Source of the DNA: Candidatus Uhrbacteria bacterium
GTDB taxonomy: Bacteria > Patescibacteriota > Patescibacteriia > UBA9934
Length of the DNA stretch: 64,000 nucleotides
NCBI GenBank assembly: GCA_030688135.1
Contig: JAUYIW010000067.1
Location: forward strand, 23,982 to 87,981
Reading direction: 5' to 3'
This document shows, one piece after another, positions 1,643-40,242 of the stretch. The translations under genes were made by a program, and so were the position numbers. Below the pieces are notes generated by a model. The model had not been told where the DNA came from and did not search any database. It was given only the letters and a program-made list of their open reading frames with translations. The first letter of the stretch is position 1. The number at the start of each line of letters is the position of its first letter.

Positions 1643-1669
1643 GCTGTCGTCAACGCATGAATTAAGCTT

Positions 1670-1698
1670 GTTTTATCATATTTATTGAACTTTGTCAA
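1670..1698 (-). promoter_or_regulatory. putative promoter with CTTGACAAAG -35 context for the CSD-protein gene
   Basis: The minus strand reads CTTGACAAAGTTCAATAAATATGATAAAAC upstream of the ATG at 1642. The -35 TTGACA is clear; the -10 is weak. Confidence 0.3.
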
Positions 1699-1774
1699 GC
1701 TTAGGACTTACTATGGATGTTGAGCTTGACAGAGGTCTCTATTTATTACCAACGTGGCTTTGTGATTGAAAAAA

Positions 1775-1812
1775 AGAAACGCACCCGACAAGGCAGGTGC
1801 GCCTGTGGATGC
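1775..1812 (-). terminator. rho-independent terminator downstream of the 1828..2730 gene
   Basis: The minus strand reads GCGCACCTGCCTTGTCGGGTGCG followed by TTTCTTTTTTT. Confidence 0.55.
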
Positions 1813-1827
1813 GTAGAGCCCCGGACT

Positions 1828-2730
1828 CTAGCCCGGAGCGAAAATGAGCGGATAGTTCACGACCACGATGCCGCCACCATTGGGCTTGGGGAACTGAAGC
1901 TTGCGGAACTCGCCAGCGATACAGCTCTCGACCGTCGGGTCGTTCATGGTCGAGGAGCTCGTCTCCGCCTTGGAGACACTCCCGTTCTTCGCAATGACGA
2001 ACTTGGTCACGACCTTGCCACCGAGCTCTGGGTCCTTCTCGAGCTCGCGCTGGTAGCAGTAACGGATCTGGTTCATATGTCGCTTGATCACCGCGTCGAT
2101 GAGTGACTTGTCAAGCGCGCCCATGATGATCGGGTCGCCACCAACCATACCACCACCCAGGCCATAGTTCCGAGATCCGAGGCCGCTACCGTAGCCAGAC
2201 GAACCATCGCTGCGACCCTTGGTCCCGAGACCACCGAGACCTTCGGCTGTGCCGCCACCTCCGAGACCGGAGCTCTTGGAGCCAAGGCCACCAGAGCCGA
2301 TCTGGGTGCCCTTGGCACCGATCAACCCCCCGATACCACTGGTGAGGTCTGCGTCGAACCTAATGGAGCCGAACACACCGTCGAACTCGGAGCCGTCACG
2401 AAGTCCCCCGAGCACACCGGCATTCTCCTTGATCTCCTTGTCGAGCTCACGCTTCTGCATCTCGACCTTGTTGCCCTTCGCCTTTACCACATCGGCCGAA
2501 GCGGGCGCTTTGGGCTTCGAGGCCTGAACCGGGTCGGGCGTCGACGCGGACTGCTCTACCGGTGCGACGACAATGTCATCAGCTGGTGTCTCGATTTTCT
2601 TTACGAGTAACGCCGCATCTGCTTGCCTCTCGAGCGCTTCGAACTCATCGAGAACGTCTTGTACGTCGTCAGCCTTCGCAGTGGACGTTGTGGCGAAAAC
2701 CGCCAGGAAAAGAATGAATGCATAACGCAT
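1828..2730 (-). CDS. secreted Gly-rich protein with TonB-C-terminal-like (AgmX/PglI-type) C-terminal domain
   Basis: N-terminal signal peptide (MRYAFILFLAVFATTSTAKA). Central Gly/Ser-rich low-complexity region. The C-terminus (DPIIMGALDKSLIDAVIKRHMNQIRYCYQREL...GGIVVVNYPLIF) resembles the TonB C-terminal / AgmX-PglI fold. High GC. Confidence 0.5.
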   Translation of the reverse strand: MRYAFILFLAVFATTSTAKADDVQDVLDEFEALERQADAALLVKKIETPADDIVVAPVEQSASTPDPVQASKPKAPASADVVKAKGNKVEMQKRELDKEIKENAGVLGGLRDGSEFDGVFGSIRFDADLTSGIGGLIGAKGTQIGSGGLGSKSSGLGGGGTAEGLGGLGTKGRSDGSSGYGSGLGSRNYGLGGGMVGGDPIIMGALDKSLIDAVIKRHMNQIRYCYQRELEKDPELGGKVVTKFVIAKNGSVSKAETSSSTMNDPTVESCIAGEFRKLQFPKPNGGGIVVVNYPLIFAPG

Positions 2731-2783
2731 GTATCACCTCTGTTTTTGAAAGAAACTTACGTACTTCAGTGTACGTAAGACGG

Positions 2784-2815
2784 ATTATAATAGCAATAAA
2801 CCCAACTTTTGTCAA
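2784..2815 (-). promoter_or_regulatory. sigma70-like promoter (TTGACA-N17-TATTAT) with shared TTGACAAAAG context
   Basis: The minus strand reads GTTTGACAAAAGTTGGGTTTATTGCTATTATAAT upstream of the 1828..2730 gene. It is followed by the palindrome CTTACGTACTTCAGTGTACGTAAG (2754-2781) in the 5' leader. Confidence 0.45.
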
Positions 2816-3065
2816 ACTACGGAGGGAGGATCATACAGCAACCAATCAATACCCCGGGTACAGATGAATCAGAACCTGACTAAAGCCCGAATGAAAGTAT
2901 TTTAAACAAAAAGCAGGCCACTAAACCCGCTTTCTACAATATTTGACATTTGAGCTTTCTGATTTGATATTTCGCCTGCATCCTTAACCTCTTCAGCGTC
3001 CGAGTAATCTCTCTTTAACCTCTCCACAATCAGTATAACCTCTCTCCACCTTCCGAGCACCCAAA

Positions 3066-4418
3066 TTACCCCAACCTCCTTCTAACAATATCTACCACTT
3101 TCTTAGCATCAACAATTTCCTGTCCACCTGACTCCATATCACGAATAATAATCGTGCCATCTAAAACTTCTTTCTGACCAAGAATAAGTGATAGTTTTGC
3201 TTCCATTTTGTCTGCTAACTCAAGCTGAGCTTTTAGCGATCCCTTACCAAACGCTTCAGCGACTGGAATTCCCGATACTCTAAACTCCTCAAACATAGCA
3301 AGCCCTTTTCTGCGTGCAGCGTCGCCAAGTTGCGCAAAAAATACATCAACCGTTCTACGCTTTGGAACATCTACTCCCTTATTCTTCATTGCAAGAATAA
3401 CTCGCTCAATTCCAACAGCCGCACCCATTGCAGGAACATCATCTCTCCCACCAAGTAATGGTATTAGGCCGTCATAACGACCACCTCCGGCAAGAGAACT
3501 TTGAGACTTCGACTCTTCGTCACCCTGCGACTCTTCTGCAACAGGTAATATCTCAAACACAGTGCGAGAATAGTAATCAAGTCCACGAACCAAAAATGGA
3601 TCAAGCTCATAGGCAACATCGACTTCATCCAGGTACTCCAATACCTTCATTAGATTTTGCTTTGAAGTTTCATCGATCCAATCAAGAATCTGTGGAGCAT
3701 TTTCACGTAACTCGTCCATTCCTTCTTCTTTTGAATCAAGTAATCGTAAAGGATTTTTTGTTAAACGCTTCTTGTCAACGTCGGATAGCTTGCTCCTGAA
3801 CTGCTTAAAGTAACTTGCAAGCTCCATTACATACTCCCTGCGTGATTCAGAAGTCCCGATTGAGTTGATTTTTACAACCGTATCAAGTCCAAGCTCTTTC
3901 ATGAATCTATCAAGCATTATAATAACCTGTGCATCGATTACAGGCTCAGCTGAGCCGATTGCCTCGAGCCCCCATTGATGAAATTGTCTATAACGTCCAG
4001 ACTGTGGGCGGTCATAACGAAACATTGGACCAAAGTACCAAAGCTTTACAGGCTGTGGTAAATTTAACATTCCGTGCTCAATATATGCTCGAGCAACTTG
4101 CGCAGTGGCCTCAGGCCGCATCGTTACACGATCATTCCCCTGATCGGTGAACGAAAACATTTCTTTTTCTACAATATCAGTTCCCTTTCCAACTGAACGC
4201 TCAAATAAAACAGTCTTCTCAAGCATTGGTAAACGTATTCTTCCAAAACTGTAATCGGTAGAAATTTTCCTTGCAGTGTCTTCTACAAGATTCCAATACG
4301 CCTGTTCTTCAGGTAAAATATCTCGGAAACCTCGCAAATGTTCTGGAGTTTTGCTTTTCTTTTTTGAAGAATCATCCACCTTCTCCAACTTATTCATTTC
4401 ATCTTTTTTTGCAGGCAT
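3066..4418 (-). CDS. hisS: histidyl-tRNA synthetase
   Basis: Class II aaRS motifs are present (RGFRDILPEE, RPEATAQVARAY, FGPMFRYDRPQSGRYRQFHQ, GGGRYDGL). 450 aa. Confidence 0.9.
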   Translation of the reverse strand: MPAKKDEMNKLEKVDDSSKKKSKTPEHLRGFRDILPEEQAYWNLVEDTARKISTDYSFGRIRLPMLEKTVLFERSVGKGTDIVEKEMFSFTDQGNDRVTMRPEATAQVARAYIEHGMLNLPQPVKLWYFGPMFRYDRPQSGRYRQFHQWGLEAIGSAEPVIDAQVIIMLDRFMKELGLDTVVKINSIGTSESRREYVMELASYFKQFRSKLSDVDKKRLTKNPLRLLDSKEEGMDELRENAPQILDWIDETSKQNLMKVLEYLDEVDVAYELDPFLVRGLDYYSRTVFEILPVAEESQGDEESKSQSSLAGGGRYDGLIPLLGGRDDVPAMGAAVGIERVILAMKNKGVDVPKRRTVDVFFAQLGDAARRKGLAMFEEFRVSGIPVAEAFGKGSLKAQLELADKMEAKLSLILGQKEVLDGTIIIRDMESGGQEIVDAKKVVDIVRRRLG

Positions 4419-4447
4419 ATTAAGTATTGAATATGGTTTAGTGAAAA

Positions 4448-5131
4448 TTAGAAATTATAATCAGGAGAAGTGAATGTGCTTATACGTTCAAATGGAAGTC
4501 CACGAATCCAAACTTTTCCAACAATACTTTCTTCATCGACTGGTCCAAATTTTCGTGAATCAAAACTTGAATCTCTGTTGTCGCCTAACAAGTAATACTC
4601 GTCTGCACCTAGAATCACACGCTCATGCCCTTCTGTATAATCTTCTATGTAGGATTCGCTTAATGATGTTCCATTTGGGTACTCACTGTTAAAAACAGTA
4701 ATAACACCGTCTAAAATTTCTACTGTTTCTCCGGGTAAACCTATTATTCTCTTAATGTAAAATTGACTTTCGTTGCCGGGTGGCCTAAAAACAACAATCT
4801 CGCCACGCTGAGCATCTTTAAATCTATAAGTTACTTCGTCAATAATTAAGTAATCATTTTCGTAATAATTCGGCTCCATTGAAGCCCCACGAACAATAAA
4901 TGGCTTAATAAGGAAGTATCGAACTGGAACTATTATCGCAGCCGCAACTATAACAACTTGCAAGACTTCAACAATAAACAGGACAACCGCGCCAAGAGTA
5001 GCCCCGAAGACTCGGTATGCAAAAGGTTCCTTGATATCTTGTCGTCGTTTGAAAAGCATAGTTTGTAATAGGGGCGGCCCATTGTGACCGCCCGCTTGCT
5101 TAAATTCCTCCGAATACACGCACAATATCAC
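4448..5131 (-). CDS. lepB: signal peptidase I (S26 family)
   Basis: N-terminal TM segment. The catalytic Ser box (VRGASMEPN) and the GDNRDSSFDSR box are both present. Confidence 0.85.
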   Translation of the reverse strand: MILCVYSEEFKQAGGHNGPPLLQTMLFKRRQDIKEPFAYRVFGATLGAVVLFIVEVLQVVIVAAAIIVPVRYFLIKPFIVRGASMEPNYYENDYLIIDEVTYRFKDAQRGEIVVFRPPGNESQFYIKRIIGLPGETVEILDGVITVFNSEYPNGTSLSESYIEDYTEGHERVILGADEYYLLGDNRDSSFDSRKFGPVDEESIVGKVWIRGLPFERISTFTSPDYNF

Positions 5132-5249
5132 AGTTTTTTGCTCTTTGCAAGGGAGTGAGCTTGATCCCGCATTCTATACTCAATGCACCACTCATCGGGA
5201 AAAACGCTCAATCGGCACAATCTCAGTCCAATACAATCCAAACACACAG

Positions 5250-5267
5250 TCCAACATCTAGCGTTGA
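5250..5267 (-). repeat. isolated copy (reverse orientation) of the 18-bp iteron TCAACGCTAGATGTTGGA at the edge of high-GC island 1
   Basis: The plus strand reads TCCAACATCTAGCGTTGA. This is the reverse complement of the motif found three times at 40243-40378. Confidence 0.6.
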
Positions 5268-5470
5268 CATATCAGCGCGGAGTACTCAAGAATTGCGATG
5301 CACACTCCACGCATCCTCCTGGCCGCCATAGCTTTAGCGACGGTGGCTGAACGCGCGAACTCCGGCAACATTGCAATCTGAGAGATTTCGGTGACACATA
5401 TCCTTAAACACGTATTCATGAACCTACTCTCCAGTGTTATTTTACCAAACTTTTTCTAAAATAAAAGAGC

Positions 5471-5506
5471 CCCTCGAAAACTTCAGTCAAAGACTTCAGT
5501 TTTCGA
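5471..5506. terminator. GC-rich hairpin (CCCCTCGAAAAC...GTTTTCGAGGGG)
   Basis: Perfect 12-bp inverted repeat near the 3' boundary of the minus-strand island-1 operon. Confidence 0.4.
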
Positions 5507-5570
5507 GGGGCAGGTCGCACTTTTTCAGATGTGGCGAGTCCGCTTCGCGGACGAAGAACCAAGGACCAAG

Positions 5571-5610
5571 CCTGCCTGCTGCCTGCCTGCCGGCAGGCAG
5601 GGCAGGCAGG
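5571..5610. repeat. perfect GC-rich palindrome built from CCTGCCTGCC units
   Basis: The sequence is CCTGCCTGCTGCCTGCCTGCCGGCAGGCAGGGCAGGCAGG. A related (CCTGCCTG)n-CCGGC tract recurs at 40045-40069 beside another high-GC island. Confidence 0.7.
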
Positions 5611-5685
5611 TCCAAAGATCTCCGAGCGCCAAGCTACCAAGCGTGCCCCGTACCGAGCTATGCTCTGGTGCGGGGTTCCAAGTGC

Positions 5686-6387
5686 CTACTCCCAGAGGAC
5701 AGACAACGACGTGAAATAGAACCAGTCGTCGAGGCGGCGGGCGTCCAGGCGCGCCCAGTCACTGTGACGGTCGACGCTCGGCGAGTCCATCCACGCATCG
5801 CAGTCGGGGACGTTCAGCTCGAGACCGCAGGCCAGAACCCACGGAACGGTATCGCCGTCGATCTGGCGAACCCAGTCGGGGTCTTGCGCGGCAGCGTAAA
5901 ATACGGCGAAGTGTGCCGAATCCTTGCCACGCACGGCCTTGGCGACCGTTCCGTCCTTGCGGTTGAAGTGCGCGCCGAGGTCCACGACCTCGATGCGCAC
6001 GCAATCGCGGTAGACGGGTACGATCGTGTTGCCACCCTCGTCCTGCAGGTATCGAACACGATTTTCGTCGATCCCACTGGCGTAGGCGAGATCCCACTGC
6101 CAGAAGTCCGTTCCGAAAGTGTCGCGCATGCGGTCGCGGGCGTAGGGCAGCAACTCATGCGCAAGACCGTCACCGAGATACGGCGACACTACGATGTTCA
6201 GCATGTTGTTGTTCTGGCTCTCTGCGTTGAACCGCGCAATGCGACTCTCGGCTTCCTTCTGCGCCGAGTCGATCATACCTCCCTTCACCCCCGGCCAGCT
6301 CCGTACCATTTCGAGCTTGTCCTTGAGTGGGCGGAATCGGCCGTGGATGAGGCGGAAAGCGTCGTGCTTGCGCATGGTGACGAGCAT
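5686..6387 (-). CDS. hypothetical protein (high-GC island 1)
   Basis: 233-aa ORF with balanced composition. The overlapping plus-strand 369-aa ORF is an Arg/Ala/Val-rich GC shadow. A hairpin (CCCCGTACC...GGTGCGGGG) follows the stop. No family recognised. Confidence 0.45.
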   Translation of the reverse strand: MLVTMRKHDAFRLIHGRFRPLKDKLEMVRSWPGVKGGMIDSAQKEAESRIARFNAESQNNNMLNIVVSPYLGDGLAHELLPYARDRMRDTFGTDFWQWDLAYASGIDENRVRYLQDEGGNTIVPVYRDCVRIEVVDLGAHFNRKDGTVAKAVRGKDSAHFAVFYAAAQDPDWVRQIDGDTVPWVLACGLELNVPDCDAWMDSPSVDRHSDWARLDARRLDDWFYFTSLSVLWE

Positions 6388-6390
6388 GGC

Positions 6391-6510
6391 CTACACCGCT
6401 TTCGGAGTTTGGCTGAGCTTCTTCGCATCTTCAGCCGTGAGCCCTGCCGCGTTAAGAACACGGTAGAGCTCGATTTCGGTTCCCTTGTCTATTTTGTAAA
6501 GGCTGGCCAT
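6391..6510 (-). CDS. small ORF (39 aa) immediately upstream of, and in frame with, the 233-aa ORF
   Basis: The sequence is MASLYKIDKGTEIELYRVLNAAGLTAEDAKKLSQTPKAV. A GGAGG motif lies 8 nt upstream. A TAG stop plus one codon separate it from the downstream ATG in the same frame. Confidence 0.25.
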   Translation of the reverse strand: MASLYKIDKGTEIELYRVLNAAGLTAEDAKKLSQTPKAV

Positions 6511-6669
6511 GTGGCTTACCCTCCTTGTTTCGCCGTCGGCTAACCTTACACCCTGAACTTACAGGAGTCTGACTGACCAGTTTGTTAAATACGGCTCTTT
6601 GAAGTCGATAAACTACAAAAAGCCATATTCAACATTAAAACTTGGTATTATTATATTAATGAACAAGGC

Positions 6670-6701
6670 ATGAATATAGCATTTATTAGCGATTTTGTCA
6701 A
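6670..6701 (-). promoter_or_regulatory. sigma70-like promoter (TTGACA-N17-TATATT) for the island-1 minus-strand operon
   Basis: The minus strand reads CTTGACAAAATCGCTAATAAATGCTATATTCATGCC. It shares the CTTGACAAA context with the other island promoters. Confidence 0.45.
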
Positions 6702-6775
6702 GTCTACTCAGCTAAAATTAGCCAATATTCTGGTGACGTCTCTAAGAGACGTCCCTTTTCTCTTATTTTATTCAA

Positions 6776-6925
6776 GATCCTCCGCTCACCGAGAGATCCT
6801 TCATCGGCTCTATTTTTTTAGGATGTCCTGCTCCCTCAGGATGTCCTACTCCGCCGGCCACCTCAGCGTCAGAATAACCCCTTCGCATCCAGAATAACCC
6901 CTCCGCCAATCGTATAACCCCATTG
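6776..6925. repeat. dispersed repeat, family E, copy 1
   Basis: AGATCCTTCATCGGCTCTA...CCTCAGGATGTCC...CCACCTCAGCGTCAGAATAACCCCTTCG. It is followed by three short ATAACCCC repeats. A second copy lies at 22884-22995. Confidence 0.6.
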
Positions 6926-7056
6926 CATTCGAACCAATCCCCCTCCCAAAACACAGCCCCTTTGCGCCCCTTTCAAATTTCGACTATAATATTGCAAGCA
7001 GAGGCTACCCTTGATATTTTTCGATCTGGAAATACATACCATATAGTGAAACAAGT

Positions 7057-8538
7057 ATGAATGACGACAACTCGGTTGATTTTCTAAAAAAGAAATACAA
7101 CCTGGCACCTGATCGCAATAGCGCCAAACGTCAAAAAAAGGTTTTACGAACTGCAGGCGTTTTTTTGACTCTTATTGCACTTGGCGGTGTCTTTTTTTCA
7201 TACAACATTTCTAAAATAGCCATTGAGCCAGCATCAGACAGCGGAGGGTTTTCTATACTTTCATCTTTCCGCAGACTTGTTACAAGTGATGAAAAAGAAC
7301 TTATTGGCGAAGAAGACGATCGCATAAACTTCCTTCTAATGGGAATTGGTGGCGCTGGCCACGACGGACCCGAACTTACAGATACATTAATGTTCGCAAG
7401 TTTCCGCCCATCTACAAACAAAATCGGAATTATGTCTATTCCGCGTGACCTTATTGTTCCAATCCCAGGTTACGGTTATCAAAAAATTAATCACGCAAAC
7501 GCCTACGGAGAACTTAACGAAGATGGCGCTGGCCCGGAACTTGCAACAGAAGTTATAAGTGAACTTTTAGACCAAGAAATCCACTACACTGTTAAAGTTG
7601 ACTTTCAGGGCTTCGAGGATTTGATCGACGCGATTGGTGGAATCAATGTTTTTGTTGAACGTTCATTTGTTGATCCAACATATCCAACTGACGACCACTT
7701 AACTGAATTTATTGAATTTGAAGAAGGCTGGAAGAAAATGGATGGTGATTTTGCACTAAAGTACGCTCGTTCTCGCCACGGCACAAATGGTGAAGGCTCT
7801 GATTTTGCACGCGCTGCGCGTCAACAAAATATTTTAATGGCTGTAAAAGATAAAATGCTCTCCCCTTCTGTTTTACTAAATCCAGGTAAACTTAATAGTC
7901 TAATTGAAACATTTAAAGACAACGTTAAAACTAATCTTACCTTTTGGGAAATGATTAAACTGGCTCGTTATGCACCAGACGTTAATACTGAAAACATCAA
8001 CCACGAGGTTTTAGATGCAAGTTCGGAAAGTCCGCTTTACTCTACAACGATCAACGGTTCATACGTGCTAATGCCAAAACTCGATAACTGGTCAGAAGTT
8101 CGATCGATTGCAGAAAATATATTTACAGCAAGTAGCTTAAATGGATCTGAAGTAGCTGAAGCTACAAAACCAATGGAATCTGCGCGCGTAGAAATCCAAA
8201 ACGGTACAAGCCTATCTGGTCTAGCGTTTGAAACGTCCCAACTTCTTGCAAGTTCTGGCGTTGAGGTTGTAAAAATTGGCAACGCTGAATCTCGAGGATA
8301 TACCAAAACAATCATCTACGATTTAACAGAAGGCGAAAAATCAGACGGTTTAAACGTATTAAAGGAGTTTTTAGGAGCAGATGTTGCCATGTCTACTACC
8401 GGATGGATATTTTCGGACGAAGTTGTCCCTCGCGAGCTCAGTGTTGGAACTCCAGGAGTTGATCTTGCAACATCTGATGAAGCTATTGACTTTTTGATCA
8501 TTTTAGGGGAGAATACGGCAAACTTGGTAATGCGGTAA
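7057..8538 (+). CDS. LytR-CpsA-Psr (LCP) family cell-envelope phosphotransferase
   Basis: N-terminal TM segment. LCP core motifs are present (INFLLMGIGGAGHDGPELTDTLMFASF, IPRDL, ALKYARSRHG, RQQNIL), followed by a LytR_C-like C-terminal domain. Confidence 0.8.
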   Translation: MNDDNSVDFLKKKYNLAPDRNSAKRQKKVLRTAGVFLTLIALGGVFFSYNISKIAIEPASDSGGFSILSSFRRLVTSDEKELIGEEDDRINFLLMGIGGAGHDGPELTDTLMFASFRPSTNKIGIMSIPRDLIVPIPGYGYQKINHANAYGELNEDGAGPELATEVISELLDQEIHYTVKVDFQGFEDLIDAIGGINVFVERSFVDPTYPTDDHLTEFIEFEEGWKKMDGDFALKYARSRHGTNGEGSDFARAARQQNILMAVKDKMLSPSVLLNPGKLNSLIETFKDNVKTNLTFWEMIKLARYAPDVNTENINHEVLDASSESPLYSTTINGSYVLMPKLDNWSEVRSIAENIFTASSLNGSEVAEATKPMESARVEIQNGTSLSGLAFETSQLLASSGVEVVKIGNAESRGYTKTIIYDLTEGEKSDGLNVLKEFLGADVAMSTTGWIFSDEVVPRELSVGTPGVDLATSDEAIDFLIILGENTANLVMR

Positions 8539-8654
8539 CTGCAAGGGTCCTAAGATGTACAGATCAGTACGAATATACAAATATATAGATAAATTTGAAC
8601 CAGAAATCTGTATATCTGTAAAAATCCGTACATCCTCGGTACCTTGCTACTTCT

Positions 8655-10022
8655 ATGACCCCTCCAAAAATTGCAATAATAGGTAGAACAAACGTCGGGA
8701 AATCGACGCTTTTTAATCGTTTAGTTGAGGCCCAAAAATCCTTGGTGTCTGAAGTCCCCGGAACTACCAGAGATAGATTTGAAGCAGACTGTATTTGGCG
8801 TGGAAAAGTTGTACGACTTATAGACACTGGTGGACTTGATACAAAAGCATCTGATCAAATTGAGCGCGACATTGCGCTTCAGGCTCGCGCAGCAATCAAG
8901 GAAGCAGATGTAATACTTTTTATTGTTGACGCAATAGCAGGATTGCAAAAAGAAGACAGAGATCTTGCTAAGGAATTAATGAAAACAAAAAAGCCAGTTA
9001 TCGTAGCTGCAAACAAAGCCGATAACGCCAGGATTCGCTCAAGGCTAACCGACAAAGAATGGTTTAACTGGTCACTCGCAACTCCGATGGCAGTTTCTGC
9101 AAAACAAGGAATTGGTGCTGGTGATTTGCTAGATGAAATATTTAATAAGCTAAAAGAGATCGGACTTGAGCCAACAGAAATCTCCGAAATCGCACTTACA
9201 CGTGTGGCTGTTGTTGGACGACCGAACGTTGGCAAGTCTTCCCTACTAAACGCTGCTCTTGGAGAACACAGATTTATAACATCGGAAATAGAACACACAA
9301 CACGCGAACCAAACGATACCTTAATGAGCGTTGACGGTCATGATTACCTTTTTGTAGATACTGCCGGTGTTCGAAAAATGGCGCGCGTAAACGCAGGAAA
9401 TTCAAAACTCGAAAAGTCAGGTGTAGACAAAACACTTCGTGCAGTTCGCAGAGCTGACGTTGCATTGTTTGTAATCGACATCACAAAAAAAATATCTTCG
9501 CAAGACAAACATCTTGCGGGAATGCTAGCAGCAGCTGGAGCAAGTACAATTTTGATCGCAAATAAATGGGACCTTATTCCTGACAAAGACTCAAAAATGA
9601 TTAATGAGTACGAAAGATATCTTCGTGCTATGCTCCCAATGCTCGACTACGCGCCAATATTATTCACGTCTGCCCTAACCGGTCAACGTGTCCAAACGCT
9701 ATTCGATATAATCGATAAAGTTTACCAAAGTCGGTTTACACAACTTACTAAAAATGAAACTCGCGAGTTTATTAGTCGTGCAATTGTGAAACACAAACCA
9801 TCACGAGGAAAAGGTATTGCACACCCTCATATTCGTTACTTTGAACAAGGTAATGTAAACCCGCCAACATTCTTCCTTGGACTAAAACAAGCCCGCAAAG
9901 ATGTTTTGGCAGATTCTTATCTTAGATTTTTAGAAAACCAACTTAGAAAAAGTTTTGATTTTGAAGGTACGCCGATTCGAATTGTAGTAAAATCTCGAAC
10001 TAGAACCGTAGAAGAGAAATAA
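8655..10022 (+). CDS. der: ribosome-associated GTPase Der (EngA)
   Basis: Two tandem GTPase domains, each with a P-loop (GRTNVGKST and GRPNVGKSS), followed by a KH-like C-terminal domain. Confidence 0.9.
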   Translation: MTPPKIAIIGRTNVGKSTLFNRLVEAQKSLVSEVPGTTRDRFEADCIWRGKVVRLIDTGGLDTKASDQIERDIALQARAAIKEADVILFIVDAIAGLQKEDRDLAKELMKTKKPVIVAANKADNARIRSRLTDKEWFNWSLATPMAVSAKQGIGAGDLLDEIFNKLKEIGLEPTEISEIALTRVAVVGRPNVGKSSLLNAALGEHRFITSEIEHTTREPNDTLMSVDGHDYLFVDTAGVRKMARVNAGNSKLEKSGVDKTLRAVRRADVALFVIDITKKISSQDKHLAGMLAAAGASTILIANKWDLIPDKDSKMINEYERYLRAMLPMLDYAPILFTSALTGQRVQTLFDIIDKVYQSRFTQLTKNETREFISRAIVKHKPSRGKGIAHPHIRYFEQGNVNPPTFFLGLKQARKDVLADSYLRFLENQLRKSFDFEGTPIRIVVKSRTRTVEEK

Positions 10023-10120
10023 AATACAAACCCTAAATTCTAGACTCTAACCTCTAAATAAATCCAAAATTCAAATTTATTTAGGATTTCTGTTTCGAGC
10101 TTAAAATTTATATGACCCTA

Positions 10121-10173
10121 CTGATAACTGGTCTTGGAAACCCAGGCAAAAAATATCAAAGCACACGCCACAA
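10121..10173 (+). repeat. partial duplicate of the pth 5' end (remnant)
   Basis: CTGATAACTGGTCTTGGAAACCCAGGCAAAAAATATCAAAGCACACGCCACAA mirrors pth codons 3-20. A 24-nt stretch is identical to 10275-10298 and the rest has diverged. Confidence 0.6.
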
Positions 10174-10236
10174 ACCACCCCAAACCCATCCTGAGGAGCA
10201 CTGCATTTCAACGACGAAGGATCTTTTGCAAAAAAT

Positions 10237-10803
10237 ATGACAAAACTTATTGTAGGATTAGGTAATCCCGGCTCAAAATATCAAAGCACACGCCACAATC
10301 TAGGCTTTATGATACTCGACCGCTTGGCTGAAAAGCTCAATGCTAGCTGGAGCGAGGATTTAAAAACATTGGCCGATGTCGCTGAACTTAATCTTGACGG
10401 TGTTAAGGTAATTTTAGCAAAGCCAATGACGTACATGAATAAGTCTGGCGAAGCTGTTGGTGCGCTAGCGCGGAAGTTTAAAGTTGAGTCTGGTGATGTC
10501 TGGGTAGCGCATGATGATGTTGACCTTCCATTTGGTCGATTGCGCGTTCGGCTTGATGGTTCTGCCGGCGGGCACAAAGGGGTTCAAAGTGTAATTGATA
10601 GTCTTCAAGCTAATGATTTTGTACGTTTAAAAGTTGGAGTTGGCGGAACACCTGAAAAAATGGCACTTGAAGATTGGGTGCTCTCAAAGTTCACAAAAGA
10701 AGAGCTCGATGTGTTAGAAGGATTAGTGGAGCAAGTAACAAATAAAATAATAGACGCGATTAAGTCTGGAAGTTTAGAAAATATAACCGAGAACCTTGAG
10801 TAA
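10237..10803 (+). CDS. pth: peptidyl-tRNA hydrolase
   Basis: LIVGLGNPGSKYQSTRHNLGF N-terminal signature. The conserved His/Asp catalytic region is present. 188 aa. Confidence 0.9.
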   Translation: MTKLIVGLGNPGSKYQSTRHNLGFMILDRLAEKLNASWSEDLKTLADVAELNLDGVKVILAKPMTYMNKSGEAVGALARKFKVESGDVWVAHDDVDLPFGRLRVRLDGSAGGHKGVQSVIDSLQANDFVRLKVGVGGTPEKMALEDWVLSKFTKEELDVLEGLVEQVTNKIIDAIKSGSLENITENLE

Positions 10804-10832
10804 GGGCAGGCCAGCATGTCTGCCCTTTTGGT
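10803..10832 (+). terminator. rho-independent terminator after pth
   Basis: AGGGCAGGCCAGCATGTCTGCCCT hairpin followed by TTTTGG. Confidence 0.55.
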
Positions 10833-11073
10833 TAATTCACTGCACCATTTCTACGACGGCGTTTGTCGGGAGGAGAAATCTTTTTTTCTTGTCATCCTGA
10901 CCCTAAGCGAGCCGTAGGCGAGTCGAAGGGGAAGAATCTTTCACTGACAGAATGCGGACTTTTAAGAATGTAAGTTTATTGGGTCACCTTGCTATAAATG
11001 CATATTTGACTCAGTCGGCAGAAAAATACTGTACTCCGGCTACCAATTTTAGCTAATCTCAGCCAAGTGGACT

Positions 11074-11102
11074 TGACAAAAGTGGTTATTTATGATATAT
11101 TA
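11074..11102 (+). promoter_or_regulatory. near-consensus sigma70 promoter (left arm of the island-3 inverted repeat)
   Basis: CTTGACAAAAGTGGTTATTTATGATATATT has TTGACA, a 16-17-nt spacer and TATATT. It is a 29-nt inverted repeat of 12038-12066. Confidence 0.55.
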
Positions 11103-11166
11103 TTAAGTTCCAAAAATGGCCAAACCGTGGCCAGCAACCTTTCAACCCAAAAAAATGGAGGCCAAA

Positions 11167-11616
11167 ATGGCCACCGAAGACGCACACGAATTCATGTTGA
11201 ACCTGGTAGCAGATCAGGCAACCCGAATGGCTATCCTGGCTGCGGGCGGCACGATCGAGCCCAAGGAGTACTATGGAGCAGAGTACCACCACGTAGTGCT
11301 CCCGATGGAAAGCCTGCTCGAGGAGCGAATCCTATATGGAGATGGCCCCATGCGCTACGTCGGCCTCTGCAAGCTGATTGACGGCCAGTGGATCAAGGTC
11401 GCCCCCGCCAATCGCGAGTCGCTCGACCAAATCGGACAGATCGCCCTTTGCGATCTGGACGAAGAGATCCAGCTGTGGACCGATCGCCGTGAGCGACTGC
11501 GCAGAGCCGGAGTCCACATACGCCCAGACTGGGCGGTAGGACTCGCTCCGCATCCGGACTTCCCCGACCCCAGGGGCACAATCCCCGGAGTCAGGCCGGC
11601 TTGCCTCGAATCCTGA
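11167..11616 (+). CDS. hypothetical protein (high-GC island 3)
   Basis: The start was chosen at the ATG preceded by GGAGG (ATGGAGGCCAAAATG). About 150 aa with balanced composition. The longer 11116 start has no RBS. No family recognised. Confidence 0.4.
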   Translation: MATEDAHEFMLNLVADQATRMAILAAGGTIEPKEYYGAEYHHVVLPMESLLEERILYGDGPMRYVGLCKLIDGQWIKVAPANRESLDQIGQIALCDLDEEIQLWTDRRERLRRAGVHIRPDWAVGLAPHPDFPDPRGTIPGVRPACLES

Positions 11617-11665
11617 TCGGCACTGACCCCCGAGTGACGCAAGTCATTCGGGGGTCGTTCTTTTT
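11617..11665. terminator. bidirectional rho-independent terminator shared by convergent genes
   Basis: CCCCCGAGTGACGCAAGTCATTCGGGGG hairpin followed by TCGTTCTTTTTTAT. Confidence 0.6.
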
Positions 11666-11726
11666 TATATGAAAACCGCCCACACAAAAGTGCAGGCGGT
11701 GTCGGGCAGGATGCCCTAGTGCCGAA

Positions 11727-12017
11727 CTATCCGGCGAGTTGCTCGAGAATCCGCTCGAGCTCGGGTTCGGCCGTCAAGTTAGTCGAGTAGACCACACCGT
11801 CCTCAGTAAGTACGTAGTACCCAACGAGACCGGCGCGAACCGCTATCACCTTGTTGGCAATGGTCGACCAGCCTTGAGTGGTCTCGAGATGACCGCCATC
11901 CTGCCATCCCATGAGTCCACCCCCAACTGCGTAGCAGTCAAAAACGTGGCCGACGGATGCGATTGAGAAAACCGACGCCACAAATGCGGCAAAAAAGATC
12001 TGGATCCAGCTTCTCAT
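11727..12017 (-). CDS. small secreted hypothetical protein (high-GC island 3)
   Basis: 96 aa with an N-terminal signal peptide (MRSWIQIFFAAFVASVFSIASVG). An AAGGAG RBS precedes the ATG. It is convergent with the 11167 gene. Confidence 0.4.
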   Translation of the reverse strand: MRSWIQIFFAAFVASVFSIASVGHVFDCYAVGGGLMGWQDGGHLETTQGWSTIANKVIAVRAGLVGYYVLTEDGVVYSTNLTAEPELERILEQLAG

Positions 12018-12037
12018 TTTGTCTCCTTTTATGTTTC

Positions 12038-12066
12038 AAGACAAATGAATATATCACAAATAACCA
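12038..12066 (-). promoter_or_regulatory. near-consensus sigma70 promoter (right arm of the island-3 inverted repeat)
   Basis: The minus strand reads GTTGACAAAAGTGGTTATTTGTGATATATT followed by an AAGGAG RBS. Confidence 0.55.
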
Positions 12067-12499
12067 CTTTTGTCAACCTCAAATCCCTAATTCCTATGAC
12101 TAATAACCTACCGGACAACCACATTTTGTTGCCCTACACGTTTTATAATCTCTAAATCCCAAATATATGCTAAAATGCTCTAAACCTCTCCGTTTGTCGT
12201 TTAACCCCTCTTTAACCCCTTAGCAACCTGAATAACCTCCCTCAAATGCCCCAAAATTCAGACCTCAAATGCTGACTAGTAACGAGCGTTTAACTATACT
12301 TATCAACCAATAATTTACTCTTTGTCGCCTTTCTGAGCACGCCCGGATTTGGTCGGGCAGGAGGCAGGAATAGCATTTTTAACCCTTGCATAACTTTTAT
12401 TAAAACCTGAAATATAGAATACAAGGCGTCCAAAATGCCCTGACGTATACCTGACCTAATGCCGGGCAGGCGCAGGATGGAGAAGTAAACAATTAGAAT

Positions 12500-13576
12500 A
12501 TGTCTTCCGACCTCAAATACTGGCTTGCGCTGAATGTGTACCCAAAATTCGGTCCAAAATCATTGGCCCGACTTTTTAACTATTTCGATTCAATGGAAGA
12601 GGCATTTTCTGCGCCATTAAGCGAAATCAAGCAAGCTGGCATTCCAGAAAAAATAGCTCAAGGCTTCACCGAAATGCGCGAAAATATAAATCCTAACGCC
12701 ACCCTTGCCGAGCTTGAACAACACGGCTTTAACGCAATCACGCTTGCCGACCCAAACTATCCTGCTCACCTTAAACAAATTTACGACCCACCGGCTGTTA
12801 TAAATATTTGGGGTACGCTTCCCTCTTCTGAAATCGCTCATCTTGCAGTTGTAGGATCTCGCCAAGCAACTCCGTACGGCCTTAGAGTTACGCGCGGTTT
12901 AATAGAAGAAGTTGCAGAAGCGGGCGTTGTGATTGTAAGTGGTCTAGCATATGGAATCGATGAAGTAGCTCACCTTGCAACAGTAAATGTTCGTGGACTT
13001 ACCGTGGCAGTTCTCGCGTCTGGCCTTTTAAGCATTAACGGCCGACAAAAAGCAATAGCACAAAAAATTGTACAAACTGGCGGAGCGGTCATTAGTGAAT
13101 TCTCGTTAAATGCCCCAGGCCAAAAACAAAACTTCCCTTTTCGAAACCGTGTTATAAGTGGAATGTGCCAAGGTACGCTAGTTGTGGAAGCTGCAGAAAA
13201 ATCTGGTTCGCTTATTACTGCACGCACAGCAATGGAACAAAACCGCGAGGTTTTCGCAATCCCCGGTCCAATAACGTCGCCAACTTCGTACGGCACAAAT
13301 AATCTAATAAAATTTGGCGCCACACCGGTAACTTGCGCAGAAGATATTTTAGATGGTCTTAATATTGAATCGCGCCCTAATGCAAAGCCTAAACCAAAAC
13401 CAGCCTCAACCGAAGAAGCATTAATTATAGAAACTCTTTCCAAGCAACCAGTACACATCGATAACATTACGCGAATTACTAAACTCCCACCTAATAAAGT
13501 TAGCAGTACGCTCTCACTCATGGAAATAAAAGGCAGGGCTCGCCATGTTGGGGGGAGATACTATATACTAGTTTGA
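12500..13576 (+). CDS. dprA: DNA processing protein DprA (Smf)
   Basis: Rossmann-like DprA core motifs: VVGSRQATPYG, IVSGLAYGID, SGSLITAR, FAIPG. Confidence 0.85.
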   Translation: MSSDLKYWLALNVYPKFGPKSLARLFNYFDSMEEAFSAPLSEIKQAGIPEKIAQGFTEMRENINPNATLAELEQHGFNAITLADPNYPAHLKQIYDPPAVINIWGTLPSSEIAHLAVVGSRQATPYGLRVTRGLIEEVAEAGVVIVSGLAYGIDEVAHLATVNVRGLTVAVLASGLLSINGRQKAIAQKIVQTGGAVISEFSLNAPGQKQNFPFRNRVISGMCQGTLVVEAAEKSGSLITARTAMEQNREVFAIPGPITSPTSYGTNNLIKFGATPVTCAEDILDGLNIESRPNAKPKPKPASTEEALIIETLSKQPVHIDNITRITKLPPNKVSSTLSLMEIKGRARHVGGRYYILV

Positions 13577-13637
13577 CAAGAAGCTCGAAATCCTAAAATC
13601 TAAATCCTAAATAAACTCAAAATCCAATCTGCAAAAT

Positions 13638-14930
13638 TTGAATTTTCGATCTATGCCAAATTTCAAAATAGCATACGACTCTCTGCTCAGTCTTTCAAAC
13701 CTTCAACTAAGGCAATATTCAGATTCAAAAATAGAACTTAAGCGATCGCTTGCTAGAACAAAGACATTACTAAAATTACTTGGAAGTCCCGAAGAGAAAC
13801 TTAAATTTGTTCACATTACAGGAACAAGTGGTAAAGGATCCGTTGCAAATATGATGCATCAAATTCTTGTAGCAGATGATCGCAAAGTTGGAACGTACAC
13901 CTCGCCACATTTAACAAGTTACCTTGAGCGATTTCAGATTAACGACAAATTCATCGACCCAGAACTACTAGCCAGATGTATTCTCGATGTTATTAATGCT
14001 TACTCGCGCCTCCTTGGTAAAGGTGAAAGCGAATTATCATTTTTTGAACTCTCTACCGTTTTAGCTCTTTATGCGTTTCATGAAGCCGGTTGCAAATGGT
14101 GCGTATTGGAAGTTGGATGTGGCGGTCGATACGACGCAACAAATATAATCCCAACGCCAAAGATTGCAATAATTACAAACGTGGATAAAGACCACACAGA
14201 AATACTAGGTGATTCACTTTCAAAAATTGCTTACGAAAAAGCTGGCATAATAAAAAATAAAGGCTTTGTTCTTTGTGGAGAATCAAGGCCTGCGCTACGT
14301 AAGATTTTCATGAAAGAAGCAATCCAAACTCAAGCAGCATTATTTTTTATCAATCAACCTACTTCTGAAATTATAGATGGTAAGTTCGGTCTACATCAGC
14401 AACACAATGCCGCGCTTGCCGAACGCGCTGCCTTTGAGCTTGGAGTTGACCCTCATGTGATAGCGTCCACGCTTAAGAACTTCAAAAAACCAGCATGCAG
14501 ATTTGAAACAGTTCAAAATAATCCTTTGTTAATTCTTGACGGCGCTCATAGCCCGGCAAAAATTAAAGCCGCAGTACGAATGATCAAAAAACTAAATCAA
14601 CCAGTGCATATTTTATTTGGTTGTACTGCTACAAAAGATGCACAAGAATTGATAGATCAACTAAATGAAGTTGCAAAAACAATAACAACAACACGATTTA
14701 CAACAACATTCCGAAAGGCTTCAAATCCGGCACGGCTTCTTTCTTTTGTACAAAAAAGTAAACGGGCTGGATTTTTTCTAGATCCGCAAGAAGCGCTAGA
14801 GCACATTAGGAAACTCACAAAAAATGGTGAGGCTATTGTTGTAACCGGTTCACTTTATCTTGCCGGAGAGCTCAGAGCCGAGTGGGTTTCTGAATCTGAG
14901 ATCTTAAAAAAACGATCAAATAGCTTGTAA
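13638..14930 (+). CDS. folC: folylpolyglutamate synthase / dihydrofolate synthase (Mur ligase family)
   Basis: P-loop ITGTSGKGS. TSPHL motif. Mur-ligase middle and C-terminal domains. Confidence 0.75.
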   Translation: MNFRSMPNFKIAYDSLLSLSNLQLRQYSDSKIELKRSLARTKTLLKLLGSPEEKLKFVHITGTSGKGSVANMMHQILVADDRKVGTYTSPHLTSYLERFQINDKFIDPELLARCILDVINAYSRLLGKGESELSFFELSTVLALYAFHEAGCKWCVLEVGCGGRYDATNIIPTPKIAIITNVDKDHTEILGDSLSKIAYEKAGIIKNKGFVLCGESRPALRKIFMKEAIQTQAALFFINQPTSEIIDGKFGLHQQHNAALAERAAFELGVDPHVIASTLKNFKKPACRFETVQNNPLLILDGAHSPAKIKAAVRMIKKLNQPVHILFGCTATKDAQELIDQLNEVAKTITTTRFTTTFRKASNPARLLSFVQKSKRAGFFLDPQEALEHIRKLTKNGEAIVVTGSLYLAGELRAEWVSESEILKKRSNSL

Positions 14931-15037
14931 TCATAAGCGAACGCAATAATAAGTAAAATGCTCCCGACCAACGCGGGAGTATTGTTTTTTACATCCTCGA
15001 ATGTGTATTGATTTATATTGTGTCCACGCAACCCTAA

Positions 15038-15054
15038 GGGTTGCGGTTGCGAAT
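15038..15054. repeat. REP-like 17-nt palindrome GCAACCCTAAGGGTTGC (copy 1)
   Basis: Perfect palindrome. One of four copies flanking the RAYT gene. Confidence 0.75.
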
Positions 15055-15150
15055 CACAATGTTATCAACACTTGACTTACTTGCTAAAAAATGCTAAAAA
15101 TAAAGTACTCCCCATTACTGCGGGAGTTTTATTTATGCATTCTCGCATAT

Positions 15151-34819: not shown

Positions 34820-34948
34820 CTTGAATTACGAAACTCGCGATCTTTGCGTGAACGGGCTGTCGATCCCCGTGAACCCTACTAAAACGTAGGGAGAATGGGG
34901 GCGACGGGCGCCCGTGAACGCAAAGATCGCGAGTTTCGTAATTCAAAA
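34820..34948. repeat. GC-rich structured element, family A copy 2 (has a perfect 29-bp outer stem)
   Basis: CTTGAATTACGAAACTCGCGATCTTTGCG ... CGCAAAGATCGCGAGTTTCGTAATTCAAG encloses the GTGAACGGGCTGTCGATCCCCGTGAACCCTACTAAAACGTAGGGAGAATGGGGGCGACGGGCGCCCGTGAA core. Confidence 0.7.
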
Positions 34949-38074: not shown

Positions 38075-38203
38075 CTTGAATTACGAAACTCGATGAGATT
38101 TGCGTGAACGGGCTGTCGATCCCCGTGAACCCTACTAAAACGTAGGGAGAACGAGGGCGACGGGTGCCCGTGAACGCAAAGATCGCGAGTTTCGTAATTC
38201 AAG
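38075..38203. repeat. GC-rich structured element, family A copy 3
   Basis: CTTGAATTACGAAACTCGATGAGATTTGCGTGAACGGGCTGTCGATCCCCGTGAACCCTACTAAAACGTAGGGAGAACGAGGGCGACGGGTGCCCGTGAACGCAAAGATCGCGAGTTTCGTAATTCAAG. Confidence 0.7.
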
Positions 38204-39240: not shown

Positions 39241-39339
39241 AAATAATATTTGATTACCAAATCATACTATCACAAATTTGAACAAAGCGAAAATTGGCTA
39301 AAACTAGCCTAGTTATAATGGTCTAAATGGTCTAATCGT

Positions 39340-39368
39340 TTGACAGAACGGCAATTTTGTTCTATAGT
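39340..39368 (+). promoter_or_regulatory. near-consensus sigma70 promoter (TTGACA-N17-TATAGT) for the island-4 gene
   Basis: TTGACAGAACGGCAATTTTGTTCTATAGT. It is followed by a ~150-nt GC-rich structured leader (39369-39519) containing the hairpin GCCCTTTTGAAAAAGGGC just before the RBS. Confidence 0.5.
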
Positions 39369-39519
39369 ATGCCGTTAGTCTGTGCTTTCAGCACCCCACT
39401 TTCTTTTTGCCTATTTGGCTTAAATAAGCAGAAAGAAGGCGGGAACAAGCACTCATTTTCCTCTTTGCCGACGGTCGGTGAGGAGTGAGCCCTTTTGAAA
39501 AAGGGCGGGAGATAAACAG

Positions 39520-39996
39520 ATGAGTAAGTTCGAAGGTTCCCGTGCCATGGCGCACCTCCTGGATCAGCTCGGCGACGAGCGCTTCGCAGCTCTGATCGAC
39601 TCGGCCAACACCGGGAAGGTCAAGGAGCTCTGCGATGCCCTCGTGAGGAATACACCCTCTCTCCCGACGGAGATGACGATCAATGGCCGCACCTACGATA
39701 TCCTCGGCTTCCTGCGGGAAGACGAGACGTCGGTGCTCAACCACGAGATGATCACGCGCGCCAAGAACATGAACGCCCACCTCGGGGAGGACGACTGCGA
39801 GTACCTGCTGGACAACCAGCAGGATATCCCCGTGAGTTTGCGGCGCAAGGTCGTGTTCGTCTTCACCTACTGGCGTGGCTCCGGCGACTCCGAGGATGTC
39901 TGCTACGTCTTTTGGGACCACGTCGTCTGGTTTCGGAGCTGGGACAGGGGCTTCAGCATCTGGAGTGGCGACTATCGGGTGCTCCGTCGCAAGTAG
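39520..39996 (+). CDS. hypothetical protein (high-GC island 4)
   Basis: 158 aa with balanced composition. An RBS-like GGGAGATAAACAG precedes the ATG. The antisense 177-aa ORF is a GC shadow. No family recognised. Confidence 0.45.
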   Translation: MSKFEGSRAMAHLLDQLGDERFAALIDSANTGKVKELCDALVRNTPSLPTEMTINGRTYDILGFLREDETSVLNHEMITRAKNMNAHLGEDDCEYLLDNQQDIPVSLRRKVVFVFTYWRGSGDSEDVCYVFWDHVVWFRSWDRGFSIWSGDYRVLRRK

Positions 39997-40004
39997 TCCC
40001 TCGG

Positions 40005-40069
40005 GTCCTTGTGACCTTTGCCCTTGGCATTGGTCACAAGGACACCTGCCTGCCTGCCTGCCTGCCGGC
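40005..40069. repeat. hairpin GTCCTTGTGACC...GGTCACAAGGAC followed by a (CCTGCCTG)n-CCGGC tract
   Basis: Same GC-rich CCTGCCTGCC motif as the palindrome at 5571-5610. Confidence 0.6.
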
Positions 40070-40124
40070 TTGATTCCTTCCCGCCGTCAGGCGGGTCGGT
40101 ACCGCCGAGGAGGCTACCCTCATA

Positions 40125-40170
40125 CACCCCGCACTGGATTCGTCCACGCGGGGTGTTTTATTTTATGTTA
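40125..40170 (+). terminator. rho-independent terminator closing high-GC island 4
   Basis: CACCCCGCACTGGATTCGTCCACGCGGGGTG followed by TTTTATTTTAT. Confidence 0.6.
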
Positions 40171-40242
40171 CAATTCCATTCGGAAAGTAAATGTTTCAGT
40201 CACGGCTACAGTTTTGGGCGATTGAACCTACACACACCTTGT

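Follow-up and report, generated by a model that had tools for sequence, protein, structure and literature searches.

Two GC-rich islands in a Candidatus Uhrbacteria contig are probable relic target loci of diversity-generating retroelements

Diversity-generating retroelements (DGRs), which are abundant in Patescibacteria, act through a reverse transcriptase (RT) that copies the RNA of a template repeat (TR) and misreads its adenines, the cDNA then replacing the variable repeat (VR) of a target gene; the resulting adenine bias is the defining mark of these elements. The stretch of DNA analyzed here, termed the window, comprises 64,000 nucleotides of contig JAUYIW010000067.1 from a Candidatus Uhrbacteria bacterium (assembly GCA_030688135.1, positions 23,982 to 87,981 of the forward strand) and holds four GC-rich islands, numbered 1 to 4, at 1-2.8, 5.2-6.7, 11.0-12.1, and 39.3-40.4 kb. 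Islands 2 and 4, which carry genes for proteins of 233 and 158 amino acids, are probably relic DGR target loci that have lost their RT and template, with islands 1 and 3 being unrelated accessory genes. The closest described systems are the DGRs of the Candidate Phyla Radiation (CPR), for which Wu et al. 2018 (PMC5758913) reported a set with mostly unclassified targets and a mutagenic region with GC-rich flanks and GC-rich inverted repeats, and used the GC deviation of a whole DGR as a sign of horizontal transfer. A cellular, CPR-restricted DGR clade (clade 2) was described by Roux et al. 2021 (PMC8144416).

The island 2 and island 4 loci resemble the DGRs of CPR/Patescibacteria in that their homologues adjoin bAvd and RVT_1 genes, the TR/VR differences are adenine-specific, the target gene encodes a small C-type-lectin-like protein and carries the VR at its 3' end, and the target loci are chromosomal and cellular, not phage-borne. 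In a clear difference from complete CPR DGRs, the window loci have no TR, no accessory variability determinant (Avd), and no RT, and retain the target gene with a truncated 5' part of the TR RNA only. They differ also from described DGR targets in that neither family has a Pfam model. Compared with Mtd of Bordetella phage BPP-1 and TvpA of Treponema denticola, the window proteins are much smaller (158 and ~273 amino acids), lack the motif of the formylglycine-generating enzyme (FGE)-sulfatase type, and share a sequence identity of <=11%. Scans of viral contigs with four island proteins or their alignments gave one relative of the 158-amino acid family and none for the other three. A phage origin is disfavored because these scans gave one locus in total, and the near-absence from viral contigs fits the cellular CPR-restricted clade of Roux et al. 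2021 (PMC8144416).

For the 158-amino acid protein 82 homologues were found, and 29 metagenome loci were retrieved with the family alignment (loci and contigs from outside the window are given by L numbers). In L006/L007, L009, and many of the 29 loci, a repeat of the 3' end of the gene, 120-125 nucleotides long and ~490-510 nucleotides downstream, is followed by bAvd and RVT_1, the TR lying 485-509 nucleotides after the start of the VR, and bAvd and RVT_1 are placed directly downstream of the homologue in L006, L007, L009, L011, L013, L018, L020, and L028. The mismatches in eight TR/VR pairs of this family fall almost entirely at TR adenines (132/143). The 233-amino acid protein has 20 homologues of ~262-306 amino acids, and in L004 two paralogues (6001-6819 and 8872-9792) with VRs at their 3' ends flank RVT_1 and bAvd. 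Next to bAvd in this locus is a TR of 129 nucleotides (8367-8495), 81% identical to the last 129 nucleotides of both paralogues, with 18 of the 24 TR/VR mismatches at TR adenines. A bAvd-like gene adjoins the homologue in L002, with no adjacent RT. The verified TR/VR pairs in target genes come from L006, L008, L009, L011, L013, L020, and L028 for the 158-amino acid family and from L004 for the 233-amino acid family. The last ~40-45 residues are variable in both families, with a conserved Trp and a terminal RVLRRK or LWE (alignments A1 and A4), and hypervariability sits on an otherwise conserved scaffold, in the 233-amino acid family alignment over ~45 C-terminal residues. Because homologues adjoin bAvd/RT and a TR with adenine-focused mismatches, both families are assigned as DGR variable (target) proteins, and the 158-amino acid protein is modeled with a C-type-lectin fold.

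The island 4 locus is arranged on the plus strand in the order of its complete relatives. The promoter TTGACAGAACGGCAATTTTGTTCTATAGT (39340-39368) is followed by a structured 5' leader RNA of three helices (39369-39519) that is conserved across the family and by the 158-amino acid gene (39520-39996; locus tag Q8P30_04095 by protein identity), in which the VR equivalent occupies ~39873-39993. Downstream are a (CCTG)n insert (40045-40069) absent from L008 and L015 at the same position, hairpins and a terminator at 40079-40159 (CCCGCCGTCAGGCGGG; CCCCGCACTGGATTCGTCCACGCGGGGTG then a T-tract), an extended -10 element TGTTACAAT (40166-40174), and the truncated first ~45 nucleotides of the DGR RNA (GGAAAGTAAATGTTTCAGTC..GGGCGATTGAA, 40182-40226). 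The window sequence 39340-40226 aligns with L008 and L015 from the -35 element on, through the leader, coding sequence, terminator, TGTTACAAT, and ~45 nucleotides of transcript GGAAAGTAAATG...GGGCGATTGAA. Directly after GGGCGATTGAA, L008 and L015 run ~190 nucleotides further into their TRs, whereas the window diverges into three iterons (40240-40259, 40302-40321, and 40359-40378, plus strand) found in place of TR-avd-RT.

The leader alignment A9 (window 39369-39519, L008 4848-5000, L015 74-218, and 14 other loci) has 94.9% of its cells paired compared with 48-58% in slid controls and 16 pairs with compensatory changes compared with 5-9 in the controls; no matching Rfam family was found. The leader is better conserved than the coding sequence after it. 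An open reading frame (ORF) of 43 amino acids within it was considered as a leader peptide and rejected, being kept in the closest relatives only, and with helices that covary across the family the segment is read as RNA. A conserved DGR cruciform was likewise considered for the inverted, GC-rich repeat that follows the 158-amino acid gene, and is not claimed, the repeat being near-perfect in the window only and not in L008 or L015.

The island 2 locus has the same arrangement on the minus strand. The promoter TTGACAAAATCGCTAATAAATGCTATATT (6673-6701) is followed by a leader of ~160 nucleotides (6511-6672), which has in common with L004 a hairpin GGCTTTTTGTAG..CAAAGAGCC and then GTATTTAACAA..GGTCAG. 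The gene (5686-6510; Q8P30_03935) has an in-frame TAG at 6391-6393 that splits the 233-amino acid ORF (5686-6387) from 39 codons matching the N terminus of the family (6394-6510), and its VR equivalent is formed by the last ~129 nucleotides (5689-5817). Downstream of the gene are a GC-rich (CCTG)n palindrome (5571-5610), a terminator hairpin CCCCTCGAAAACTGAAGTC..GACTGAAGTTTTCGAGGGG with a T-tract (5470-5511, read from the sequence), and an extended -10 element TGGTAAAAT (5439-5447). The 5' stub of the TR-bearing DGR RNA (5270-5434) stops before the TR; it aligns with L005 and with L004 8500-8745, which runs into the L004 TR, and the homology ends at 5270, where an iteron TGTCAACGCTAGATGTTGGA (5250-5269, minus strand) marks the break.

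The 20-nucleotide iteron TGTCAACGCTAGATGTTGGA thus sits exactly where both loci lose homology to complete DGR loci. Four copies of CAACGCTAGATGTTGGA are present in the window (5250 on the minus strand; 40243, 40305, and 40362 on the plus strand) compared with ~0.17 expected by chance, at two islands only and on the distal side only. Iterons 2 and 3 of island 4 are also present in contig L053 of Logan, an independent assembly of SRR13727534. An iteron of 18 bp had been placed at these two islands by the initial annotation, and its copies are located as described, with a repeat unit of 20 nucleotides; the (CCTG)n palindromes that it gave at both islands are present as well. No exact match to the iteron was found in 185,579 species genomes and none in the other fetched loci with <=2 mismatches allowed, and viral contigs gave eight single 17-mer matches, about chance level by estimate. 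Compared with L008 and L015, the (CCTG)n/(CAGG)n element is inserted sequence; in both window loci it occupies a GGAC^CTTGG site, which suggests an element peculiar to the Uhrbacteria genome, either a slippage product or a small palindromic repeat. Another shared property of the 3' flanks is a run of YTYGG pentamers (CTTGG, CTCGG, and TTTGG), with six to eight copies within ~100 nucleotides past the stop codon in targets of both families (window 5610-5690, minus strand, and 39997-40080, plus strand; L004, L005, and L006).

Sequence searches for the missing components covered the 64-kb window (64 of the 93.8 kb of the contig). No DGR-type RT was found in the window by tblastn with three family RTs (nothing below E=0.68), no Avd/bAvd by tblastn, and no second copy (TR) of 5689-5817 or 39873-39993 by blastn-short with a word size of 7. 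The VR of the window 158-amino acid gene has six mismatches at the 46 non-adenine positions invariant in six family TRs compared with 0-1 for VRs with a cognate TR. Loci with no RT alongside are common in both families, which is likewise consistent with loss of function. A complete locus of these families comprises, in order, a strong sigma70 promoter, a leader of ~150 nucleotides, a small C-type-lectin-fold variable-protein gene with a 3' VR of ~120-129 nucleotides, a terminator, an extended -10 element, a non-coding RNA with the TR as its 3' part, bAvd, and RT. The window loci keep all of this up to the first 45-165 nucleotides of the TR RNA and then break at the genome-specific 20-nucleotide iteron. 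Because each still has part of its TR RNA gene as a stub, it is inferred that they once had their own TR-avd-RT, since deleted or replaced, and are now inactive. Neither gene would then be diversified further in cis, the 158-amino acid gene being intact with drift at scaffold positions and the 233-amino acid gene having a premature TAG.

Four points weigh against assigning islands 2 and 4 as relics. The RT and matching TRs could lie outside the searched 64 kb, elsewhere in the contig or the metagenome-assembled genome (MAG). At the 158-amino acid gene, ORF, promoter, and leader are all undamaged, with 95% identity to L015, a state unlike long-term decay. The joins at 5197-5583 and 39997-40273, which hold the truncation points, are backed by the MAG assembly only and by no Logan contig. 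Finally, nothing links islands 1 and 3 to DGRs, and the composition and promoter type that they share with islands 2 and 4 are unexplained by a DGR origin.

The composition of the islands is clearly defined. In segments of 150-500 nucleotides the GC content is 0.51-0.65 at 1-2750, 5500-6500, 11100-12000, and 39500-40000 compared with ~0.40 elsewhere, and the excess is at synonymous sites. The GC content at third codon positions (GC3) is 0.60-0.72 for the island genes, ~0.80 for the 233-amino acid gene, and ~0.86 for the 158-amino acid gene in their true frames, with 0.23-0.47 for the host (n=55 window ORFs), and the pooled host genes of the window have third positions of A 0.32, T 0.36, G 0.16, and C 0.15. 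Windowed GC and GC3 both bear out the four high-GC segments of the initial annotation. Within the islands only the coding sequences are GC-rich, promoters and leaders being AT-rich.

The same pattern is present in the DGR target families. In most of the ~28 loci of the 158-amino acid family, the target gene has a GC content of 0.52-0.65 and a GC3 mostly of 0.6-0.9 between flanks of 0.29-0.47, the exceptions being L022 and L037 with a gene GC of 0.46, and the 233-amino acid family has the same GC-rich gene compared with its flanks. The third positions of RT and Avd are host-like and AT-rich within the same cassette as the GC-rich target, and the leader of 150 nucleotides has a GC content of 0.30-0.48; the composition step coincides with the start codon because the leader is AT-rich and RT/Avd are host-like. 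The mean third-position composition of targets in 17 loci is A 0.07, T 0.15, G 0.31, and C 0.47, with A below T in 16/17. The GC3-rich, adenine-poor state spans the whole target coding sequence (window 39520-39996 and 5686-6387; L004, L006, and L008-L036). Divergence is also uneven. For window 39340-40226 compared with L015 45-900, the promoter and leader are 95% identical and the 3' flank 84%, whereas outside the VR the coding sequence has 65% protein identity and 60% identity at third positions, with four-fold sites near saturation (20/42 the same). The gene body is thus far more diverged than its non-coding flanks.

The promoters are the second property common to the islands. The pattern TTGACA-N16-18-TAnnnT occurs at six sites in the 64 kb, five of which precede island genes (2815, 6701, and 12076 on the minus strand; 11073 and 39340 on the plus strand) and one a tRNA (29338, minus strand). 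Within 1-20000 the top four sigma70 matches are the four island promoters, with TGn before the -10 element in 4/4. The near-consensus sigma70-type promoters that the initial annotation had placed before the island genes are therefore upheld, being five of the six perfect window sites with coordinates right to a few bases. The sequence TTGACAAA has six occurrences, a count not itself above chance, and its placement is, with five of the six before island genes; finding these five in the correctly oriented 200 nucleotides upstream of the six island genes, which make up <1% of both strands, has a p of order 1e-9 by our own arithmetic. The exact 10-mer TTGACAAAAG is present at three promoters only, and the island 4 site at 39340 differs, reading TTGACAGAAC. 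The promoter of the 541-amino acid gene of island 1 (1698, minus strand) has a weaker -10 element, TAAAAC.

In other genomes a near-consensus promoter lies 130-200 nucleotides upstream of nearly every DGR-target family member with enough upstream sequence, most reading TTGACAAAA(G/C)..TGnTATAAT, and the TTGACAAAA promoter with a high-GC coding sequence is seen in >25 loci of the target families. The units of the 158-, 233-, and 541-amino acid proteins recur elsewhere as promoter plus gene with the same promoter type. The promoter is inherited with the cassette, since the homology between the window and L015 starts exactly at the -35 element in contexts that are otherwise unrelated, and promoter and composition are both inherited cassette properties, not marks of recent import from a GC-rich donor.

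Upstream of the two DGR-target promoters are the palindromes TTGGCTAATTTTAGC (6711-6725, island 2) and TTGGCTAAAACTAGCC (39294-39309, island 4). These are the only two window copies of TTGGCTAA..TAGC, which sits 10-35 nucleotides upstream of the -35 element and is also present in L010 and L019; it may act as an operator or as a weak terminator. A shorter palindrome, GGCTAA..TTAGC, is present upstream of the L039 homologue of the 541-amino acid gene. Repeats rich in G (GGGGTTATTC..GACGCTGAGGTGG) and showing a strong GC skew (2830-3065, 6730-6965, 12085-12330, and 22880-23040, minus-strand sense) lie upstream of the island 1, 2, and 3 promoters and also downstream of parB at 22.9 kb.

Islands 1 and 3 carry no DGR feature that was found. 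Island 1 is composed of two minus-strand units, the first of which (17-1698) encodes the 541-amino acid protein from a promoter TTGACAAAG..TGATAAAAC at 1670-1698. Residues 42-107 of this protein match Pfam CSD at 18 bits (E=0.0026), below the gathering cutoff of 27, so that a cold-shock resemblance is plausible but falls short of establishing membership. The 541-amino acid family comprises 184 cluster representatives with a conserved C-terminal domain of unknown function. In three homologous loci (alignment A7) the gene is single among housekeeping genes (SecY, MurJ, and LepA), with no RT nearby and no TR/VR-like repeats. The homologues are mildly GC-richer than their flanks, and L039 has GGCTAATGTTAGC-N9-TTGACAAAAGTG upstream, the same promoter type. 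The second unit (1777-2815) encodes a secreted Gly-rich protein of 300 amino acids (1828-2730) between a promoter (2787-2815) and a terminator (1777-1804). This protein passes the cutoff of the NF033768 AgmX/PglI C-terminal domain model (110.8 bits, cutoff 40) and fails that of the GltG equivalog (195, cutoff 650). It resembles GltG/GltJ of the Myxococcus gliding motor (NF033768 and NF033760), aligning with GltG over its C-terminal half, the Gly-rich linker included, and differs in being half as long and in belonging to a Patescibacterium with no other gliding genes nearby.

Island 3 (11073-12076) has two convergent orphan genes, one of 166/150 amino acids (11116-11616, plus strand; the 166-amino acid protein is Q8P30_03955 by protein identity) and one for a secreted protein of 96 amino acids (11727-12017, minus strand), with convergent terminators at 11624-11657 and 11675-11700. 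Its promoters (11073-11101, plus strand; 12048-12076, minus strand) are 29 nucleotides long and 28/29 identical, forming an inward-facing inverted repeat in which the similarity ends with the promoter itself, and the plus-strand promoter region matches that of island 2 over 57 nucleotides at 75%. No homologue of the 166-amino acid protein was found besides itself. The island proteins gave no matches to Pfam, PHROGs, and PADLOC save the weak CSD match, and Rfam over the window gave three tRNAs at the gathering threshold, a permissive scan of islands 2 and 4 adding only chance microRNA-type matches. The initial statement that the island genes have no recognizable family is only partly right, the 300-amino acid protein passing its domain cutoff and the CSD match of the 541-amino acid protein falling below. 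A terminator-like hairpin follows each gene, as had been proposed for the cassette ends. Islands 1 and 3 are assigned as unrelated GC-rich accessory genes on the same host-type near-consensus promoter.

Independent recent acquisition of the four islands from GC-rich donors, for instance a myxobacterium-like donor for the GltG-type gene, with host near-consensus promoters, is possible but doubtful. It draws on the match of the 300-amino acid protein to GltG/AgmX-PglI models typical of Myxococcota, on GC3 values of 0.6-0.86 far from host usage, and on the absence of any homologue for the 166-amino acid protein. The DGR targets, however, are GC-rich within the coding sequence only, beside AT-rich RT, Avd, and leader, in >25 genomes. 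The GC-richness of the 541-amino acid family relative to its flanks elsewhere and the promoter of L039 together argue that the trait is old and intrinsic.

A further reading, in which RT, Avd, and TR encoded elsewhere in the genome act in trans on islands 2 and 4 as active remote targets whose VRs are still diversified, is unlikely. It would account for the intact ORF, promoter, leader, and GC-rich 3' end (..CGGGTGCTCCGTCGCAAG) of the 158-amino acid gene. Family loci L005, L016, L021, L032, L035, and L036 also have no adjacent RT, and all but L005 lack an adjacent RT/TR with flanks of 3.5 kb; DGR surveys also list targets that are not next to the RT (Wu et al. 2018, PMC5758913). The truncated stubs of their own TR RNA at both loci, however, point to removal of a cis module, the window VR has departed from the family TR scaffold at six non-adenine positions, the 233-amino acid gene is interrupted by its premature stop, and the window holds no TR.

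The initial annotation proposed that the islands form one cassette family gathered by an integron-like or plasmid- or phage-derived capture system. Integron cassettes are promoterless, bounded by attC, and arrayed beside intI/attI/Pc. The islands are like them in being short one-gene units of unrelated functions and atypical composition, and unlike them in that each unit has its own promoter, is bounded by no attC-like site, and is dispersed. The descriptive part of the proposal holds, namely foreign-looking units of one or two genes behind near-identical strong promoters, with at least three of the units recurring elsewhere as promoter plus gene; the mechanism is not supported. A dedicated capture and expression platform gathering unrelated GC-rich cargo behind a standard promoter is very improbable. 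Such a platform would be consistent with the placement of five of the six perfect window promoters before island genes, with the near-identity of the island 3 promoters and the match between the island 2 and 3 promoter regions, and with GC-richness limited to coding sequences beside AT-rich promoters and leaders. On the other side, no repeat is common to all units, no attC-like imperfect inverted repeat bounds them, and no attI-like site is shared. A contiguous cassette array with attI/Pc alongside is absent from the window, and no integrase turned up, the ORFs not being individually screened for one. Each promoter is conserved with its gene in other genomes, the cassette homology starts exactly at the -35 element in a different genomic context, two of the units are DGR loci, and the units are spread through 40 kb of housekeeping genes usual for Patescibacteria (HisRS, signal peptidase, LytR-CpsA-Psr, Der, Pth, DprA, RuvX, Map, and a ribosomal protein operon). 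The single cassette family is also contradicted by the cargo, the four islands carrying unrelated protein families with differing contexts elsewhere.

Chimerism, with the islands brought in from a GC-rich organism during assembly or binning, has next to no probability and is refuted for islands 1-3, since, abrupt as the GC steps are, the promoters and leaders of the island genes are host-like in composition and independent Logan contigs span most host/island junctions, entering islands 1, 2, and 3 from host genes and leaving again (L001 linking signal peptidase and HisRS to rpsU across island 1; L042 from the island 2 coding sequence to LCP, Der, and Pth and across island 3 to DprA), with L053 running from SecY and Map to iterons 3 and 2 of island 4.

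Other repeats are present outside the islands. A repeat of 127 nucleotides with internal inverted symmetry, similar to a miniature inverted-repeat transposable element (MITE) or a repetitive extragenic palindrome (REP), is found at 24884-25010, 34821-34947, and 38077-38203 (84-96% identical), and a fourth copy lies just beyond the window start (L001 5695-5720). Tandem repeats at 22090-22776, downstream of a parB-like gene (23037-23894), have units of 48 nucleotides (two identical copies) and 192 nucleotides (~2-3 copies, 97%). Upstream of pth a segment of 64 nucleotides (10110-10173) repeats the start of the gene (10235-10298) at 75% identity, which suggests a partial 5' duplication.

A broader generalization is offered as speculative and is held to be rather improbable. 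Patescibacterial DGR targets, and perhaps a wider set of surface or secreted cassettes including the 541-amino acid family, would undergo a process acting on the coding sequence alone, which shifts third positions toward G/C and depletes adenines in particular, with added control through the leader RNA and the TTGGCTAA..TAGC operator. The cause could be retroelement-linked, adenine-directed mutagenesis or gene conversion extending beyond the VR over evolutionary time; alternatively, selection may purge adenines from the whole target mRNA. The target-specific GC3/adenine anomaly, confined to the coding sequence, is not mentioned in Wu et al. 2018 (PMC5758913), Roux et al. 2021 (PMC8144416), or full-text searches, and neither the structured, covarying leader RNA nor the iteron at the deletion points is mentioned in the DGR literature searched.

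The integron-like speculation is replaced here by a concrete identification, that of relic DGR target loci, and the promoter, leader, VR, TR-RNA stub, and break point provide landmarks for DGR relics in CPR genomes, relics that RT-based DGR finders would overlook. In AT-rich genomes such as these, a small GC island behind a consensus promoter can mark a DGR variable-protein gene and may serve as a cheap discovery heuristic. If the compositional anomaly is truly a footprint of the retroelement beyond the VR, the view of DGR targeting would change.

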